Source: Malassezia furfur (lineage: Eukaryota). Taken from it: a DNA stretch of 35,502 bases. The notes beneath the pieces are model-generated. The model was not told the origin of the DNA, did not search any database, and saw nothing but the letters and a program-made list of their open reading frames with translations. This document shows positions 10,583-33,498 of this stretch, in pieces. Positions within the stretch are counted from its first letter, which is position 1. Each line of letters opens with the position of its first letter. Made by a program: the position numbers and the translations under genes. The stretch lies in the NCBI GenBank assembly GCA_052055015.1, contig JBQJIT010000074.1; one strand, written 5' to 3'.

Positions 10583-11197
10583 ATGTCGCACTACTCGGCT
10601 GTCGCCAAGGCACGATCACGGCGCGTGCCATCATCCAGTGGACTGCTGAGTACTCCCAGCTATACTGGAGTGCGCGCACCTGCGCCGCCGCACGCGGAGC
10701 TTAGTGAGGACCAGCGTGCCGAGATCCAAGAAGCGTTCGAGTTGTTCGACACGGACAAGGACGGCGCGATTGACTACCACGAGCTTAAAGTAGCGATGCG
10801 TGCGCTCGGCTTTGATCTCAAGAAGCCTGAGCTGCTCAAGATTCTGCGCGAGAACGACGCGAGTGGGTCGGGGCTGATGGAGTGGAAGGACTTTGAGCGG
10901 ATTCGTACGTGGCGCGCAATTCACACCAGTAACGGAGCGTATCCTCTCGCGAGACCCTCGGGAAGAAATTCGGCGCGCATTTGCGCTCTTTGATGACGAC
11001 GGCACGGGCAAGATCAGCTTGCGCAATCTGAAACGCGTCGCGAAAGAGCTCGGAGAGAACTTGGACGACGAGGAACTGTGCGTACCGACTATGTTAGATA
11101 CTAATGCAGTCAAGCTATGATCGACGAGTTTGACCTGGACCAGGATGGCGAGATTGATGCGAGCGAATTCGAGCAAATCATGATGGACGAACCGTGA
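10583..11197 (+). CDS. CDC31: Centrin (Cdc31); exons 10583-10904, 10930-11077, 11110-11197
   Basis: EF-hand sequence [40 protein letters not shown], then [38 protein letters not shown] and [16 protein letters not shown]. Introns of 25 and 32 nt. Confidence 0.95.
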
Positions 11198-11266: not shown

Positions 11267-11632
11267 ATGGCCGGCGGACGCAACCAGTACTATGAGTTCT
11301 ACCGGCAGAGCAGGTAGGTTGTTGTACGCTTACATGGCATCGGGATGCAGCTCACGGATGCGCTCGACGAGCTGATCCAATCGGGTCACATCAACCCGAT
11401 CCTCGCCATGAAGGTGCTGGAGCAGTTTGACAAGTCGATCTCGGAGACGCTCGCGACGCAGGTCAAGTCCAAGGGCAACGTCAAAGGGCATCTGCACAAC
11501 TACCGCCTATGTGACGAGGTATGGACGTTCATCGTGAAGGATGCCATGTTTAAGCTGGACAACGGTGAGACGCTCCCGGTGGACCGCGTGAAGATTGTGG
11601 CGTGCAAGCTGGGCGAGAACAATACGCGGTAG
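11267..11632 (+). CDS. TOA2: Transcription factor IIA gamma (small) subunit; exons 11267-11313, 11338-11632
   Basis: MAGGRNQYYEFYRQS(S)IGMQLTDALDELIQSGHINPILAMKVLEQFDKS..KGHLHNYRLCDEVWTFIVK..VKIVAC. The join requires a GT-GG intron. Confidence 0.93.
11314..11337 (+). other. Predicted non-canonical 24-nt GT...GG spliceosomal intron
   Basis: Sequence GTAGGTTGTTGTACGCTTACATGG has a consensus donor and a CTTAC branchpoint, and ends in TGG at the usual +5 position. Only this junction restores the conserved YRxSSIG frame. Confidence 0.7.
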
Positions 11633-11673
11633 CGCCGCATAGGAGAAATGTGCATACGTAAACTTACATGCTG

Positions 11674-13745
11674 CTATGTTTGTTGTTGCTGCGATACCGT
11701 CGCTTGGTTCAGACCAGTAAACATGTCAGAAAAATGGGTAGAGTCCGTCGCGGGGAGCAGGCCGATGGTGGCGTCGTTGCCGGTGACACTCGCTGACACG
11801 GCCATGGAGTCCATCGGCACTGAGAAGGCCACGTCGCTCTTTTTCAACGGTGTACCGGTAGGCGCGTTTGCGGAGTGCGTCAACGCTGCAAAGATGGGCG
11901 TCTGGGGGTGAGAGGCAGGGAGCAGCGAGTGCGACAGGATCGCATCCAGCGTTTTGGGGTCGTAGTCAGGCCGATTAGGTGGCAGCGCCAAAGGTGCCGT
12001 GGGAGGACGCGCGAGGTAATCGCCAGGCAACGGCACCGCCGGGTTGGGAGCGGCACTCACCGCTGAAGCCGGTAGCAGTGGCGCACCTGGCGCGGCCGCA
12101 GGCACCGCGTGCAAGCCCGGCACGGGCGCCTTGTGTACGCCCTGTCGCGCGTCGGCGGTGGCGGCGGCGGCGGCAAGCGCCACCGAGTGTGGTACACCGT
12201 CGACCGTCTGGGGTGCGTAAGTCGGCGCTGCGTCCGCCGACGCACTCTGCGGGAGGCCCGCCAGGACGTTGGCAAGGCGGTCGTCCTGCGAGGACATCTC
12301 CGGCGCGCCTACTTCGTTGGACAGCGCCGGGCGTTTGTGCGCGCGACGGTGCACCCCTGGGCGGGAGCCGCCTCCACTTCCGCGGCTCGGCGGGACCATG
12401 TTGGGATCGCCCGTAGGCTCCACGGTGACGACGGTGCCGTCTTTGGCGCGCTTGCGTTTGTTCGATAGGGAGCGCGCATAGCGCAGCCCGCATGCGTTGC
12501 AAAGCTGGGTCAGTGGCTACGACGTACAGTTTTGTGCCCCGAGGGACCACGCCGCCACTCGGGACTGTTGCTCTTGCCGCAGCTCGAGCAGGACTTGGTC
12601 GGTGCCGTACTCGTGGCCGTCGCTGCCGCCAGTGCTGCGACGTTGTCCTGAGCCGACGGGCTGGCATCCGCCCGAGTCGATCGTGGGTATGGCAACGACG
12701 ACTGCGCCTGCGCAGACTCGACCGGGACTGACGCGTGCGTCTCCGATTTCCACTCGCTTTCGCCTGGGCTGCGCCGATCGTGGCCAGCCGCGTTGTTTCC
12801 TTCCGACAACTTGGAATGTGGCAGGGCCGCTGTGCCCTTGGTTGGCTCGGAACTGGGCCGGTCGCTCGTCACCTGGAAGCAAGCCAGGACGATGGACCCG
12901 TACGGGATGAGCACACTCGAGATGGCACGCACGCGTCCGGACGCCGTGAGTGTATGGGACGCACGGAACCGCTGGGTGCAGCTGGTCGTGTCGCTTGCTC
13001 CTGCTGCGGGGCCCGCGTGGATGCCCTGGACTAGCCGCGCAAAATCTTCTGCGTGGTAGGTATCCGATGCGCGGCTGCCCTGCACCGCCTCGGGAGGAGG
13101 CCAGCTAAGCAGGATCTGGCGCTGGGGCGCGTTGCCGAGCACCTCGAACACATAGTGCAGCGGGCGCGTCAAGTGTTCCTGGGTCGCGGCGTACAACTGG
13201 CGCCAGAGCTGCTGCGACTGTGCCGCGTCAAATGCGTGCGCCGAGTTACCACAATGCGTAGAAGAGAGCACGTCGGGCGACGGGATCGTGTGGAAAAAGC
13301 ACAGGGCGAGTCGGTCGCCGACCATGTTCACTACCACGTCCGTCGGTGTATACTCGGAGGCGGCATCCGCAGCGCGTGGCGCGCTGCTGAGCATGCACCG
13401 GATGTGGGCGGTGCTTGCATATCGGCACCGCGTCACGCTGCCAAACAGCGTGCGGCTCTGCACGATGCGCGCCAAATCGCTCCGTGCGTGCGCACGTTCG
13501 TCGGCGTGCACAAAGTCGGTGAACTGGCGCCCGAGAATCGCATGTGCCATGGCGCCAAGCTCGTGCTGGACGTCGGGGTCCACATACACAAACTTGAGCT
13601 GGCCCTGCGTCGCCTCCGATACCTCGTGCTCGGCCGGAGTCGAGAGCAGCGCCCAGAAGCAGCGGGACACGTCACCTTCGCTCGACGGCTCGACGCGGCT
13701 GCTCTGCGCCAAGACCGACGGCTCGTCGGTCCTCTCAGCCTTCAT
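11674..13745 (-). CDS. GATA zinc-finger transcription factor with N-terminal PAS-like domain; exons 13745-12528, 12504-11674
   Basis: The 23-nt intron 12527-12505 completes CSSCGKSNSPEWRRGPSGHKT|LCNACGLRYAR (CX2CX18CX2C). PAS-like segment: FVYVDP..ILGRQFTDFVHADER..ARSDL. Confidence 0.88.
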
Positions 13746-13921
13746 TTCAATGAGGCAAGAAGACGGGATTGGTAGTGGCGCTGCACGCAGCCAATAGTCC
13801 CAAATACGAACCGTGTCAAGCGCCCCGCTGAAGCGTTGGTGGGAGCTCACTGCGCGGCGAGGCACCGCCTTACGTAAGACGTTCCTCGCCGCGACGCGAC
13901 ACCTCTAGGCGCGCCGCTGCG

Positions 13922-14566
13922 ATGCGCATCCAGATCCACGCCGGGCAGGGCCCACGACCGGCCGACGACTGCCCCCTGCCGCCACCGCCGCTCGCGCGTC
14001 TGAGTCCGAACGGCGAGCTGGTCCTGGTCGAGCTGCAGGGCTCCCTGGAAATGGACGGCGTCGACCCGGAAGGCGGGCAGACGATTGGCGTGTTGCGCTT
14101 CCCAGAAGGGCGCGAGGTACGTGCCATGCCGCTCACGCAGGACAAGCCCATACTCCAAATCTCCCACCATTTGCTCGAGGGAAAAATTGTCTCGCTACCC
14201 CGGCCCATTGCAGTGCTCGAAAAACGCGTCACGCCGGCGGACCAGGTCGAGAGCGACATCGAGTCCGACGACGATGCAGGCGTGTCGCCACCCGCGAGCC
14301 CGGCACCTGCGTCACCCTCGCAGCTCGCCAAGCGCGCGCGCATGGAGCCGCCGGAGACGCCGACTAAGCCGAGGGAGGTGCTCAGCAGCAGCCCGATGCC
14401 GGAACGCGCCCCTCGTTACTCTGATGGGCACCTCGACTTTTCGTCCCCGCAGCCGGGGCGCGGCAAAAAGCCCTCAACCGTCACATCCTACCACGTCGTC
14501 ACCCTAGTGCGGCAAAAGGTGCTCTTCGCCAAGCGCCCAGAGCCCATTGTCCAACTAAATTCATAA
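13922..14566 (+). CDS. CTF8: Chromosome transmission fidelity protein Ctf8 (Ctf18-RFC subunit); probable in-frame intron 14117-14140
   Basis: LVLVELQGSLE, IGVLRF, PILQISHHLLEGKIVSLPRPIAVLEK, and C-terminal YHVVTLVRQKVLFAKRPEPIV. Confidence 0.88.
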   Translation: MRIQIHAGQGPRPADDCPLPPPPLARLSPNGELVLVELQGSLEMDGVDPEGGQTIGVLRFPEGREVRAMPLTQDKPILQISHHLLEGKIVSLPRPIAVLEKRVTPADQVESDIESDDDAGVSPPASPAPASPSQLAKRARMEPPETPTKPREVLSSSPMPERAPRYSDGHLDFSSPQPGRGKKPSTVTSYHVVTLVRQKVLFAKRPEPIVQLNS

Positions 14567-14583: not shown

Positions 14584-15457
14584 CTACAACAACTCCACAC
14601 GCCGTTGCTGCAAGAAGATGCGGACGTCGCGGTATTGGAGGAGATGAATCGTGCCTTGGGCAAGCTGCGCCGTCTCGTCGCTGGGTGAGCGTCGACTCCA
14701 CGTACTTGGGCAGCGGGAGCGCACCGCAGTCTTCGCGGCAATACACAAATACGGGGGCGCTCAGGTTCGGCGCCGTCACTGAGTCAGTCTCCCCACCTAC
14801 CCATTCCACCTGCAGCATTGCTGGACGTCGCACCAGGGGCTGCGTCATCGAGTCCGCGCATCGGCTCCGGAAGAAACTGGAGCACAGTACTTTGGAAATG
14901 GTCCGTATTCAGCTGGTGGAACCTGAGTCAGCTTCGCCAACGTACCGGCGCACGTAGCCCAACTCGATGTCGCTCAGCCGCTGCTGCTCTGACCGATGGG
15001 ACATGATGTATGCAGCATACGTCTCAATCTGGGTCAGCCAAACACGCACCTTGGCAAGCCGAGCACGCAAATAGTTGCGAAGAAGCCACTTGGCCCGCTC
15101 CACGTCGAGCTGAACCAAGTTCAGCCGGAAGTGTTCCTCTTCGGAGGTAGACGCGTCAGATGCGAGCGAATCAAGGATCGACTGCTGCTGCGCAATCTGG
15201 TCCATCACTTCTTCAACCATGGATGCATTCCACGGCTGCACCTCGGGCGCGCCGCGCTCATTGAGCCACGCGTGCGCCAAGCGCACAATGCTTGATCGGG
15301 TCTCACCGAGAGGCTCCTCCTTGACATCCAGACCAAGCGGTAGCGCCTCGGGACTCGACCGCGTATTTTCCTTTACCGAAGTATACGAGGACGACGGCTG
15401 CGTAGGACGGGGCACCTCGTCCTCGTCATCGGACAGTGCATAGCGTGCATGCGACAT
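14584..15457 (-). CDS. SLD5: GINS complex subunit Sld5; exons 15457-15050, 15028-14946, 14922-14801, 14778-14706, 14680-14584
   Basis: LAHAWLNERGAPEV, LVQLDVERAKWLLRNYLRARLAK|IETYA, LSDIELGY, and C-terminal APNLSAPVFVYCREDCG..LAQGTIHLLQYRDVRIFLQQRRVELL. Four introns of 21, 23, 22 and 25 nt. Confidence 0.9.
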
Positions 15458-15521: not shown

Positions 15522-17169
15522 ATGTCCGCCGACCTTGTGCCGAAGCTGCACGCACTTGACGAAGTGTATGCGCCCGCATCCCAGGAACAGGAAACACAGC
15601 GCTGGAATGCCCTCCAGACCAGGTTTTCAGAGGTGTATGGCCGCGCGGCAGACTTCGTCGCACGCGCGCCAGGCCGTGTCAACTTGATCGGCGAGTACGT
15701 ACCCCGCTAACCTAGGCACGTCGACTTTGTCGGCTATAGGTAGGTGGTATCACTGACGAAGCGTATTCCCCGCGGCCATTGACAAGGACATTCTCATGGC
15801 GGCCGCCATGATTCCAGGCAAGCCGGGCGACTCCTTGCAAGTTACGCTGCACAATGTTGCCCCACGCTTTGCAACGACTGTCTTCGCGTGTGACATTAAC
15901 AGTCCGTCCTCGGTGCAGCTTACACATGAGGGAGATACGCGCTGGGCTAACTACTTCAAGGTCGCACTCCAGGGCCTGCAGCCCCACTTGCCGCCCGAGG
16001 CACTTGCGCAGGGATCCGGTCATCTCCTGGTGCTGGTGGATGGCAGCGTGCCCCCTGAAAGCAGCTTGAGCTCAAGTGCAGCGATGACTACCTGCAGCAG
16101 TATTGTTGTTTTGACCGCACTGGGTGCGCGCGACTGCATTCCCCGGAAAGAAATGACAGAGGTCGCAATCGAGAGCGAACGTCTGGTCGGTGTCAACTCC
16201 GGTGGAATGGACCAAGCGGTATCGGTATTTGGCGTGCGGGACCATGCCATCTATGTATCTTTTGTCCCGTCGTTGGAGACTCAGCCCGTCCGTCTTCCGG
16301 GCGCGCAGAACGAAGCCTTCGCATTCGTTGTGTCCAACACGCTTGTGGTATCTGACAAAAAGGTCTCGGGACCGGTTCAGTACAATTTGCGGGTCGTCGA
16401 GACACGCTTGGCGGCCGCTCTGCTGGCACAAGCCCTGGGCGTGGATGCCGATGTGCCGGACCTGAAGCCGAGTTACCGCAATACGCTTCGTGCTGTGGCC
16501 GACGCATATTTCGCGACCCAACCCGAGGCATGGAACGCGTTGCTTCAAGACCAAGACATCAAAGCTGTCCACGAAACACTTGGCAAGGAAGCAGCACAGC
16601 TCCAGGCAATGCTGTTATTGGTGGACAAACACATCCCGCGCACAGGAATCACGCGCGAAGAGCTGGAAAACAAGCTCCAGCTAACCAGTGACGCATTCCA
16701 TGAAAAATTCTTATCAGCGTTCCCCGTACATGCAGACCAATTTTTTTTGCATGCGCGCGCAACGCATGTATACTCCGAAGCGCAGCGCGTGCTGAAATTC
16801 AAGGCGCTTTGTGATCATGCTAATGCCGCGGAGCAGGTCAACACCCAGGCCATTTATGCCGAGTTGGGTTCGCTCATGAATGCAAGCCATGAGAGTCTAC
16901 GTACCAACTACGATTGCAGCTGTCCCGAACTGAATGCGGTTGTCGAGATCGCGCGCAAGCATGGCTCGCTTGGCTCACGCCTGACGGGTGCTGGCTGGGG
17001 AGGGTGTGCCGTGCATTTGGTTGCCTTTGACCAGCTGCCGTCGGTTCTCGATGCGCTTACGCGAGAATACTACCAGGCCAAATTCCCTGAACTCGACAAG
17101 AAGCAGCTCGCCAATGCGCTTTTTGCTACACAACCGGCCCAAGGCGCTTGCGTTTACACGGAAAAATAG
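15522..17169 (+). CDS. GAL1: Galactokinase (GHMP family; GalNAc-kinase activity not excluded); exons 15522-15694, 15716-15739, 15762-17169
   Basis: Splicing introns of 21 and 22 nt restores [26 protein letters not shown]. Also PPESSLSSSAA, GVNSGGMDQ, YNLRVVE, HVYSEAQRV, YDCSCPEL, GSRLTGAGWGG. Confidence 0.9.
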
Positions 17170-21113: not shown

Positions 21114-22124
21114 ATGTCCCCAGACGCCGCATCCTGGACCCCGGAACGGTTCTATCGCGAGTATGAGGCGCCTACTGGCTACAATGGACACATGGAGCAT
21201 GTGCGCGAATTTATCGATCACAACAAGCAAGCGGGGCGCAAGGTGGTTCTCATCACTGTACGTAACCGGAGCTCACGCAGAGCGGAGGAACCACCGTGCC
21301 GCTGGAGCGCAACGTGTACGTGATCCATCTTATGCAGGGTGCGCTTTCTGGACAATTTTTCGGCAGGGACACGCGGTGCTGCATCCGCTGAATACTTCTT
21401 GGCCGCGGGCTATGCGGTGATTTTCTTGAGCCGCCAACACAGTCAATTTCCCTACACGCGGCGCTACAGTCACACGACCAATCCCTTCTTTGACATTTTG
21501 CAAGAACCAGAGAGTTCCGATGGCGCACAGGAAGTGCGCGTGCAGCAGCACCAAGTCGCAACGCTGCTCCCCGTGCTCCGCGCCTATCACCAAGCGCGCC
21601 AAGCGGGATGTCTATTGCCGGTGCCGTTCGTAACGGTGGTTGAATACCTGTTCTTACTGCGGGGTATCAGCGAAGCGATGCAGCCGCTCGGACGGCATGC
21701 GATGCATTATCTGGCTGCGGCGGTGAGCGACTTCTTTATTCCTTTGGACCATATGTCAGAGCACAAGATCCAGTCCGGCGACGGTGCACTGCACCTCACC
21801 CTCGAGCCCGTACCCAAGGTGCTGGGGAGCCTCGTGCAGGAGTGGGCGCCGGCATCGTATGTGATCAGCTTCAAGCTGGAGACCGACCGCGAGCTGATCG
21901 TGCCCAAGGCGGAAAAATCGCTCGAGCGCTACGGGCACCAGCTTGTAATTGGCAACGAGCTGTCCACTCGGAAAACCGAGGTGACCCTTGTGGAGCGTAC
22001 GTCGGACGGTACGTATACGACGACGCCGATGCGCATCCCCGCCGATACACCGCGCGAAATTGAGCAAGATATCATTACGACTCTAACGGACCGGCATGTA
22101 CGCTGGATCCATACATCCTCATAG
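21114..22124 (+). CDS. CAB2: Phosphopantothenate-cysteine ligase (CoA synthesis); exons 21114-21257, 21281-21315, 21338-22124
   Basis: Introns of 23 and 22 nt restore KVVLIT|SGGTTVPLERNV|VRFLDNFSAGTRGAASAEYFL. Also YLAAAVSDFFIP, HKIQS, ISFKLETD, VIGNELSTRK. Confidence 0.93.
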
Positions 22125-24554: not shown

Positions 24555-25227
24555 ATGAGCGGAGTGCCCGACTACTACCGCGTGCGTAGTGCGTGCTAAC
24601 CCAGATCCTTGGCGTTGTACCCACCGCTTCGGCGGAAGAGATCAAAAAGGCGTATCAGCGTGAATCTCTGCGCTCGCATCCGGACCGATTCCCGAAAGCA
24701 TCGCCCAGCGAGAAGCGGGAGTATACGCGCCGTTTCCAAAGCGTCGCCGACGCATGTAAGTGTTGTGGCTGACCCCAGATTACATCCTCTCTGACCCGGA
24801 GCGTCGACGCGAGTACGATGCAGTGCGCCCGGCGGCGACGACGGGTTCGTCGACCGACCCAGACGATGACGTCAAGGAAAGCACCAATTTCTTCCGCTCC
24901 TTCTTTGGTGCAAACTCGCAGCATGGCGAGTATGCACAGCCACAACCGGAGCAACAGTTTGCGGAGACTTGGGAAGATCTGCTGCGCCCCGAAATGGAAC
25001 GTGTCGGGCATTGGTGGCAGTATGCCGGAGCCGCCGCAGGGAGCGTGCTAGGCTACATCATTGGCAATGTCCCAGGCGCCCTCGGTGGCGGTCTCTTGGG
25101 TGGCAAAGTGGGATCGATCCGCGATGCCAAGGGGCGTGCTGTTAGCGAAGTGTTTCTGCATCTACGAAGCGATCAGCGTGCTCAGATCCTGCGGGAGCTG
25201 GCGATGAAAGTGCTTGGGTCGCTCTAA
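24555..25227 (+). CDS. DnaJ-domain protein with C-terminal glycine-zipper membrane segment; exons 24555-24581, 24605-24755, 24779-25227
   Basis: PDYYR|ILGVVPTASAEEIKKAYQRESLRSHPDR..FQSVADAYYILSDPERRREYD (HPD motif). Two 23-nt introns. Confidence 0.9.
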
Positions 25228-32752: not shown

Positions 32753-33498
32753 ATGTCGGCGCGAAAGAAAGTCTTGCTGAAGGTGCGTTTCCCGTGTATC
32801 GCAGGACAGCATACTAACACAACCCTTTGCAGGTCATTGTACGTATTATCCGCTAACTCCAAGATTCTAGGTGACTCAGGGTATGTCCATCTATGTACTC
32901 ACGCAGTGTCGGCAAGACATCGTTGATGAATCAATGTGCGTGGTAAATTGCTCACACAGACGTCAACAAGCGTTTCTCTGCAGCATACAAGGCGACGATC
33001 GGTGCCGACTTCCTTACGCGCGAGGTTATGGTGGATGGCCGCTTGGTTACGATGCAGCTGTGGGATACGGCGGGCCAGGAGCGTTTCCAGTCGCTGGGTG
33101 TTGCGTTCTACCGAGGCGCAGACTGCTGTGTGCTTGTGTACGATGTGAATAACCCGAAGTCGTTCGAGGCGCTCGACAGCTGGCGCGACGAGTTCTTGAT
33201 CCAGGCGAGTCCGCATGACCCTGACAACTTCCCGTTCGTGGTGCTGGGCAACAAGATCGATATGGAAGAGAGCAAGCGCGTGGTGTCGCAGAAGCGTGCG
33301 ATGACATGGTGTCAAAGCAAGGGCAACATTCCCTACTTTGAGACGTCTGCAAAGGAGGCCATCAACGTCGAGCAGGCGTTCCAGACGATCGCCAAGAACG
33401 CCTTGCAACAGGAGGCGGAGGCGGATCTCTACGCAGACTACCCTGACCCCATCAGGATTGACTCGGCAAACCCGAGATCCTCAGGGTGCAACTGTTAG
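32753..33498 (+). CDS. YPT7: Rab7 GTPase; exons 32753-32782, 32833-32838, 32864-32880, 32907-32935, 32960-33498
   Basis: Spliced N-terminus [45 protein letters not shown]. Also [31 protein letters not shown] and C-terminal CNC. Confidence 0.96.

Follow-up and report, generated by a model that had tools for sequence, protein, structure and literature searches.

The AG acceptor is near-universal in introns. Among the described exceptions, the closest to the case presented here come from the basidiomycete Ganoderma lingzhi, in whose manually curated annotation GT-GG is the third commonest non-canonical class, with 38 introns (0.04%; PMC11590231). Eight U12-type GT-GG introns have been reported in human and mouse (PMC1557818), and in Giardia a GT-GG junction was counted as semi-canonical and described as rarely spliced (PMC10711314). 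With respect to the position of the 3' splice site, the shortest natural distance from the branch in S. cerevisiae is 10 nt, a minimum for which Prp18 has been proposed as the ruler; when Prp18 is missing, splicing makes use of branch-proximal and non-AG sites, AUG, ACG, UGG and UUG being the best-used non-AG sites in prp18-delta yeast, with UGG confirmed by RT-PCR in UBC12 (PMC10711555). In the yeast P complex, the last G of the intron pairs with its first G while A(-2) pairs with the branch adenosine; mutation of invariant nucleotides impairs mRNA formation, and Slu7 is dispensable when the branch lies less than nine nucleotides from the 3' site (bioRxiv 10.1101/212811).

As for the genus of interest here, the annotation of M. 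sympodialis gives a mean intron of 30 bp and was built with RNA-seq junctions filtered to GT-AG, GC-AG and AT-AC (PMC5389616), so that GT-GG cases would have been missed. Our literature search found no report joining Malassezia to non-canonical splice sites or acceptors, and none on Malassezia together with the branch point or the spliceosome, or with a 5-nt spacing between branch and acceptor; the literature on Prp18 and Slu7 included no Malassezia among the matches listed (the best 12 of 88). An earlier note on this DNA had considered that non-AG acceptors might already be reported in Malassezia; no such case was found in that search, although the kind itself had already been catalogued in fungi (PMC11590231), and the intron described below would be a further instance of this rare GT-GG kind.

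The locus lies in a window of 35,502 nt from Malassezia furfur (contig JBQJIT010000074.1), the window being the whole stretch of DNA that was analysed, with a G+C content of 61%. It carries a gene for TFIIA-gamma, the nearest named proteins being those of M. obtusa, M. psittaci, M. yamatoensis and M. japonica. Its features are the following:

11267..11313, plus strand: TFIIA-gamma exon 1, made up of the ATG and 14 codons, then the AG of a split Ser codon
11314..11337, plus strand: 24-nt candidate intron GT...GG, whose removal gives a 113-aa product (equivalent boundaries 11313-11336, GG...TG)
11314..11319, plus strand: 5' splice site GTAGGT, which fits GTRNGT
11315..11317, plus strand: in-frame TAG that terminates the reading frame upon intron retention (AGG TAG)
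11329..11333, plus strand: branch-site motif CTTAC (YTNAY); its branch A (11332) precedes the final intron base by 5 nt
11335..11337, plus strand: 3' end TGG, where the local consensus is CAG, with GG at 11336-11337
11338..11632, plus strand: TFIIA-gamma exon 2, stop codon TAG (11630-11632) included
11345..11347, plus strand: Met codon at which the public 95-aa annotation (P0091) starts
11348..11350, plus strand: first CAG downstream of the branch site, a competing, frame-shifting acceptor 18 nt from the branch A

Exon 1, from the ATG at 11267 to its end at 11313, reads MAGGRNQYYEFYRQS followed by AG, and its peptide matches residues 1-15 of P0094, the M. obtusa orthologue, at every position. 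The letters from 11314 to 11337 are GTAGGTTGTTGTACGCTTACATGG, after which exon 2 begins at 11338 with C ATC GGG ATG CAG CTC, in the same frame as exon 1. The exon ends, the stop met upon retention and the shared frame had been described in these terms in the earlier note, and all were correct on re-reading. Since there is a G at both 11313 and 11337, GT...GG (11314-11337) and GG...TG (11313-11336) yield the identical mRNA; the first of these boundaries is preferred because it is the only reading with a consensus donor. The same hexamer, GTAGGT, also opens short candidate introns at 2964, 15740 and 23495 and, on the minus strand, at 14800 and 24366.

The 24-nt stretch has the GTRNGT donor of a U2-type intron, a YTNAY motif at the usual local distance and an orthologous position and phase, and departs from that type in its end, which is GG (11336-11337) in place of AG. 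The extended donor consensus of U12 introns, those of the minor spliceosome, is of the RTATCCTT type, from which the donor found here, GTAGGTTG, differs. Being bounded by GT and GG, with a removal that restores the reading frame, the stretch has the make-up of a GT-GG intron. The human and mouse U12-type introns (PMC1557818) share its terminal dinucleotides, while its GTAGGT donor is of the U2 type; the dinucleotides are also those of the Giardia junction, reported there as rarely spliced (PMC10711314). More is held in common with the G. lingzhi introns, namely a basidiomycete host, the GT donor, the GG acceptor and the fact of being missed by automatic annotation, with truncated gene models as the outcome; those are 38 transcript-supported introns out of approximately 92,000, whereas here we deal with a single predicted case (PMC11590231). 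Also unlike that comparison set, the present intron is 24 nt long, has a spacing of 5 nt between branch and 3' end and lies in the gene for an essential general transcription factor.

Exact removal of 11314-11337 produces a protein of 113 residues, identical to its orthologues at 110 of 113 positions in M. obtusa, 109/113 in M. psittaci, 105/113 in M. japonica and 99/113 in M. sympodialis, the first 22 residues being the same as in M. obtusa. It is only upon this removal that the N-terminal motif Y-Y-E-[FL]-Y-R-x-S-S-I-G becomes contiguous, and the motif aligns with high confidence to the solved yeast Toa2, from residue 6. Both Pfam domains are recovered well above their cut-offs (TFIIA_gamma_N, PF02268, 72 bits versus 33; TFIIA_gamma_C, PF02751, 80.8 versus 27). 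Positions 1-47 of the 47 in TFIIA_gamma_N are covered only when exon 1 is included, and the form starting at Met 11345 covers positions 12-47 only.

Canonical ways of joining the two exons were also considered. Leaving aside the AG internal to the donor, the sole AG between the donor and position 11400 is that at 11349-50. An intron of 37 nt ending at 11350 would shift the frame and meet a stop after 23 codons, in agreement with the claim of the earlier note that the next AG places exon 2 out of frame. The GC at 11270, the only GT or GC donor at a codon boundary in exon 1, would eliminate the whole conserved N-terminus, and donors at 11287 or 11296 combined with the AG within the TAG (11316-17) shift the frame. 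No GT/GC...AG pair restores the frame while retaining the conserved N-terminus. Of the gene structure put forward earlier, two elements were upheld, the conserved position of the intron (see below) and the restoration of the product by this 24-nt removal and no other; that the junction is used in the cell is what the sequence would suggest.

One explanation that does without splicing is that the change from A to G killed the intron, the product now being the 95-aa protein from Met 11345 and exon 1 a recent relic or a short upstream ORF. The only public annotated protein of exactly this sequence is indeed the 95-aa P0091 (NCBI/UniRef), which starts at Met 11345, and a protein equal to the spliced product was not found among the 129 proteins fetched or in the fully listed clusters of the nearest relatives; both facts speak for a dead intron, as does the observation that AG is normally required for exon ligation (bioRxiv 10.1101/212811). 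The absence of the spliced form among protein records is nevertheless weak evidence, since in M. restricta all the non-NCBI members among those listed (15 of 53) are likewise genomic read-through ORFs. On the other hand, the 18 residues that the short protein would lack hold a motif conserved from Malassezia to the solved yeast Toa2, and with them positions 1-11 of TFIIA_gamma_N would be lost. In M. restricta, M. cuniculi and CBS 17886 the residue corresponding to Met 11345 is Ile, so that this Met is not a conserved start, and in an unspliced mRNA two ATGs would precede it, at 11267 and, out of frame, at 11334. Furthermore, an intact exon 1 with its ATG is still followed by an intact donor and branch site, and the protein encoded by exon 1 is identical to that of M. 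obtusa. Taken together, these data make a dead intron an unlikely explanation, albeit the most serious of the alternatives weighed here.

The identity of the base at 11336 could be assessed with other contigs of the species. A 102-aa ORF (P0002) that reads through the end of the intron as ...RLHGIGMQ... (CAT GGC) is present on 53 contigs, and two allelic variants, each with one residue different elsewhere (P0089 and P0090, one contig each), also read RLHG, so the G at 11336 is carried by 55 contigs in total; the RLHS form is absent from the P0002/P0089/P0090 cluster. P0002 starts with M where the window has GTA, which may reflect other contigs that differ at that base of the intron, or the choice of the gene caller, and has no bearing on the G at 11336. 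The RLHG reading on 55 contigs excludes an assembly error at 11336. A true AG-ended intron hidden by a sequencing or assembly error has nothing in its favour beyond the prior of a near-universal AG and, given the reading on 53 contigs plus those of the two variants and the lack of RLHS in the cluster, we assign it practically no probability. The earlier note had named an A at 11336 as one of the results that would overturn its proposal, and this is contradicted by the 55 contigs carrying G.

We then turned to the corresponding intron in other fungi. A motif search placed the junction in 19 of 80 fetched loci, after a mismatched hit in L007 had been dropped. Three of these 19 fungal loci with a readable junction are intronless, and the other 16 have an intron that in every case ends in AG. 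Four of them are metagenome Malassezia loci (L001, L002, L003 and L025), with an intron at the same position and phase, within the Ser codon (AG|Y):

L002 and L003: orthologous intron of 31 nt, ending in TAG
L001: orthologous intron of 39 nt, ending in TAG
L025: orthologous intron of 38 nt, ending in TAG

Along with position and phase, these introns share with that of the window a GTRNGT-type donor and a YTNAY branch site; they differ in their TAG end, their greater length and a distance of at least 9 nt between the branch A and the 3' end, compared with 24 nt and TGG in the window. Protein records offer a second view of the same junction, as 34 of the 129 fetched proteins read through the 3' end of the intron into exon 2. 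The junction codon is Ser (AGY) in 30 of them and Gly in three, which are P0002, P0089 and P0090, all from the species of the window; the remaining one, P0129, is a fused annotation artefact. Given that all 16 readable fungal introns end in AG and that Gly appears only in the window's species, the GG acceptor is, on the sequences compared, a derived state confined to this species. Comparison of the orthologous intron across relatives, proposed in the earlier note as a check, thus returned AG at 16 of 16 readable intron-bearing loci.

Other variation at this intron was seen through the proteins P0043, P0126, P0058 and P0006. The read-through ORF of one lineage implies a GC donor (AG|GCAYGT), as deduced from the protein alone. 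In M. vespertilionis the intron is 30 nt long, in frame and free of stops, and one record annotates it as coding (P0126). The intron has seemingly been lost in at least two Malassezia lineages, in which full-length ORFs exist on genomic contigs. L001 (1501-1956) and L002 (1501-1894) have a second TFIIA-gamma intron, absent from the gene in the window. A scan of a genome-contig collection for relatives found none.

These comparisons also bear on whether the intron is retained, with readthrough of its TAG to yield a protein of 121 aa that contains an insert of 8 residues. Twenty-four nucleotides do preserve the frame, but the insert would break the conserved YRQS-SIG motif, it is absent from the orthologues save the one M. 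vespertilionis record with the in-frame stopless intron (the other record of that species, P0092, has the spliced reading), and there is no sign of such readthrough in the organism. We consider this outcome highly improbable.

Short introns appear to be a general trait of the region. Two of them interrupt the neighbouring CDC31 (centrin) gene:

10905..10929, plus strand: CDC31 intron 1, GT...AG, 25 nt
11078..11109, plus strand: CDC31 intron 2 (32 nt), whose 3' G follows the branch A by 5 nt

Removal of both opens a frame that is identical at 146 of 178 positions to Cdc31 of M. vespertilionis (P0093). Across the window, candidates were collected as a GTRNGT donor followed by YTNAY within 9-37 nt (n=53); they are motif candidates, and comparison with an orthologue was made for the two CDC31 introns only. 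The first AG lies exactly 5 nt past the branch-like A in 26 of the 53 and 6 nt past it in six, where 100 mononucleotide shuffles give an expectation of approximately 1.4 per distance, and distances above 10 nt are not enriched over the shuffles. The 34 candidates with distances of 4-6 nt are mostly 21-26 nt long and have C at -3 in 29 instances. In an alternative count, 26 of 68 candidates had AG at A+4/A+5, a dinucleotide whose background frequency is 5.6%. The statement of the earlier note that the GG sits 5 nt past the branch A, as the AG does in neighbouring introns, is borne out by these figures (26/53 versus 1.4 expected).

The TFIIA-gamma stretch fits this local template in its donor, its 24-nt length and the position of its branch site, the exception being TGG in place of CAG, and it is the only non-AG candidate in the window that a verified gene needs. 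A second candidate ending in GG (15674-15702, minus strand) precedes the Met of a GINS/Sld5-like gene, on the palindromic GTACGTAC, and was judged to be due to chance; the remaining non-AG candidates are inside continuous reading frames and were judged likewise. The palindrome (15695-15702) is a consensus donor on either strand and serves a 21-nt candidate intron on the plus strand, at the 5' end of a GHMP-kinase gene, which accounts for the spurious GG candidate on the minus strand. In general, introns in the window appear to be ultra-short, mostly of 21-26 nt, their branch and acceptor being fused into a single motif, CTNAY-N-CAG, as exemplified by 2964-2987, 12505-12527 (minus strand), 14117-14140, 15029-15049 (minus strand), 21258-21280, 24582-24604 and 32936-32959. 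The few candidates in L001 and L002 have branch-to-acceptor distances of 6-9 nt or more; the rigid 5-nt spacing may be a trait of one lineage, the sample being very small.

The distance data are also relevant to the first canonical CAG (11348-50), which could be used as the end of a 37-nt intron, leaving an unproductive mRNA and low expression by some other route. This is the first AG past the branch site, it is a YAG and, at 18 nt, it is the one that a scanning model would pick. However, distances over 10 nt show no enrichment over shuffles in the window, and besides the stop after 23 codons this junction would remove Met 11345, a sole outcome that an essential conserved gene could not afford. 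We therefore give it only a slight chance of being what happens at this locus.

The TFIIA-gamma ATG comes only 69 nt after the CDC31 stop (11195-97), and the two genes appear as a single fused protein in public M. vespertilionis (P0092) and M. equina (P0129) records, seemingly an artefact of annotation caused by this short gap. On the other side, a convergent minus-strand gene, putatively of the GATA-type zinc-finger kind according to a reading of its ORF translation only, comprises two ORFs (11677-12516 and 12513-13904) that a 23-nt candidate intron (12505-12527) would connect. Its end and that of TFIIA-gamma are approximately 40 nt apart (11630-11676), so the 3' UTRs of both must overlap or be extremely short.

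From the evidence above, 11314-11337 is probably a real spliceosomal intron of the TFIIA-gamma gene, in which the ancestral AG would have mutated to GG and which would still be removed at the same position, at minimum frequently enough to supply TFIIA-gamma protein. We infer the use of the GG junction, and the mechanism that follows, from the letters of the locus, the need for the deletion, the position of the intron, the derived G and the 5-nt layout. With a tether of 5 nt, the last bases of the intron would probably be brought to the active site by position and geometry. The terminal G could still pair with the first G of the intron, leaving G(-1)/G(+1) intact; the weakening would be limited to the contact between base -2 and the branch A, so that exon ligation might be lowered and not abolished. 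The A-to-G change could then have become fixed as nearly neutral, which would account for the preservation of exon 1 with its ATG and of both the donor and the branch site. Several features count against use of the GG: the A(-2) that in yeast pairs with the branch A is lost, and changes to invariant nucleotides impair the formation of mRNA there (bioRxiv 10.1101/212811); the base at -3 is T, versus C in 29 of the 34 local short candidates; and the good CAG 18 nt from the branch A could compete and lead to a frameshift.

The sites used in prp18-delta yeast (BG sites) resemble this one in that UGG serves as acceptor, lies closer to the branch than normal yeast permits and keeps the terminal G, but those are minor aberrant products of a mutant, while the Malassezia site would be a normal, productive junction in the wild type (PMC10711555). 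The natural minimum of 10 nt in S. cerevisiae (PMC10711555) is twice the 5-nt mode of the window. The suggestion of the earlier note that the 3' site can be chosen by distance from the branchpoint fits both the rigid 5-nt spacing and the yeast work on branch-proximal non-AG sites, and would extend to this intron if its GG junction is used. A broader proposal, which we put forward tentatively and regard as possible rather than likely, is that the spliceosome of this Malassezia lineage works as a rigid 5-nt ruler from the branch adenosine with a relaxed requirement for AG, as a wild-type counterpart of the prp18-delta phenotype. If that were true, the GG intron of TFIIA-gamma would be its visible proof, and more GT-NG introns would lie behind truncated gene models throughout the genome.

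The public gene model is apparently 18 conserved residues short, and annotation pipelines limited to GT/GC-AG will repeat this truncation elsewhere in Malassezia genomes. The main value of this locus lies in the correction of that gene model and in providing a test case for the choice of 3' splice sites by position. Should cells use this junction, a wild-type fungus would rely on a non-AG acceptor to make a transcription factor that is essential and conserved universally, which would show that, at a tether of 5 nt, position can replace the A(-2) contact seen in structures of the yeast spliceosome.
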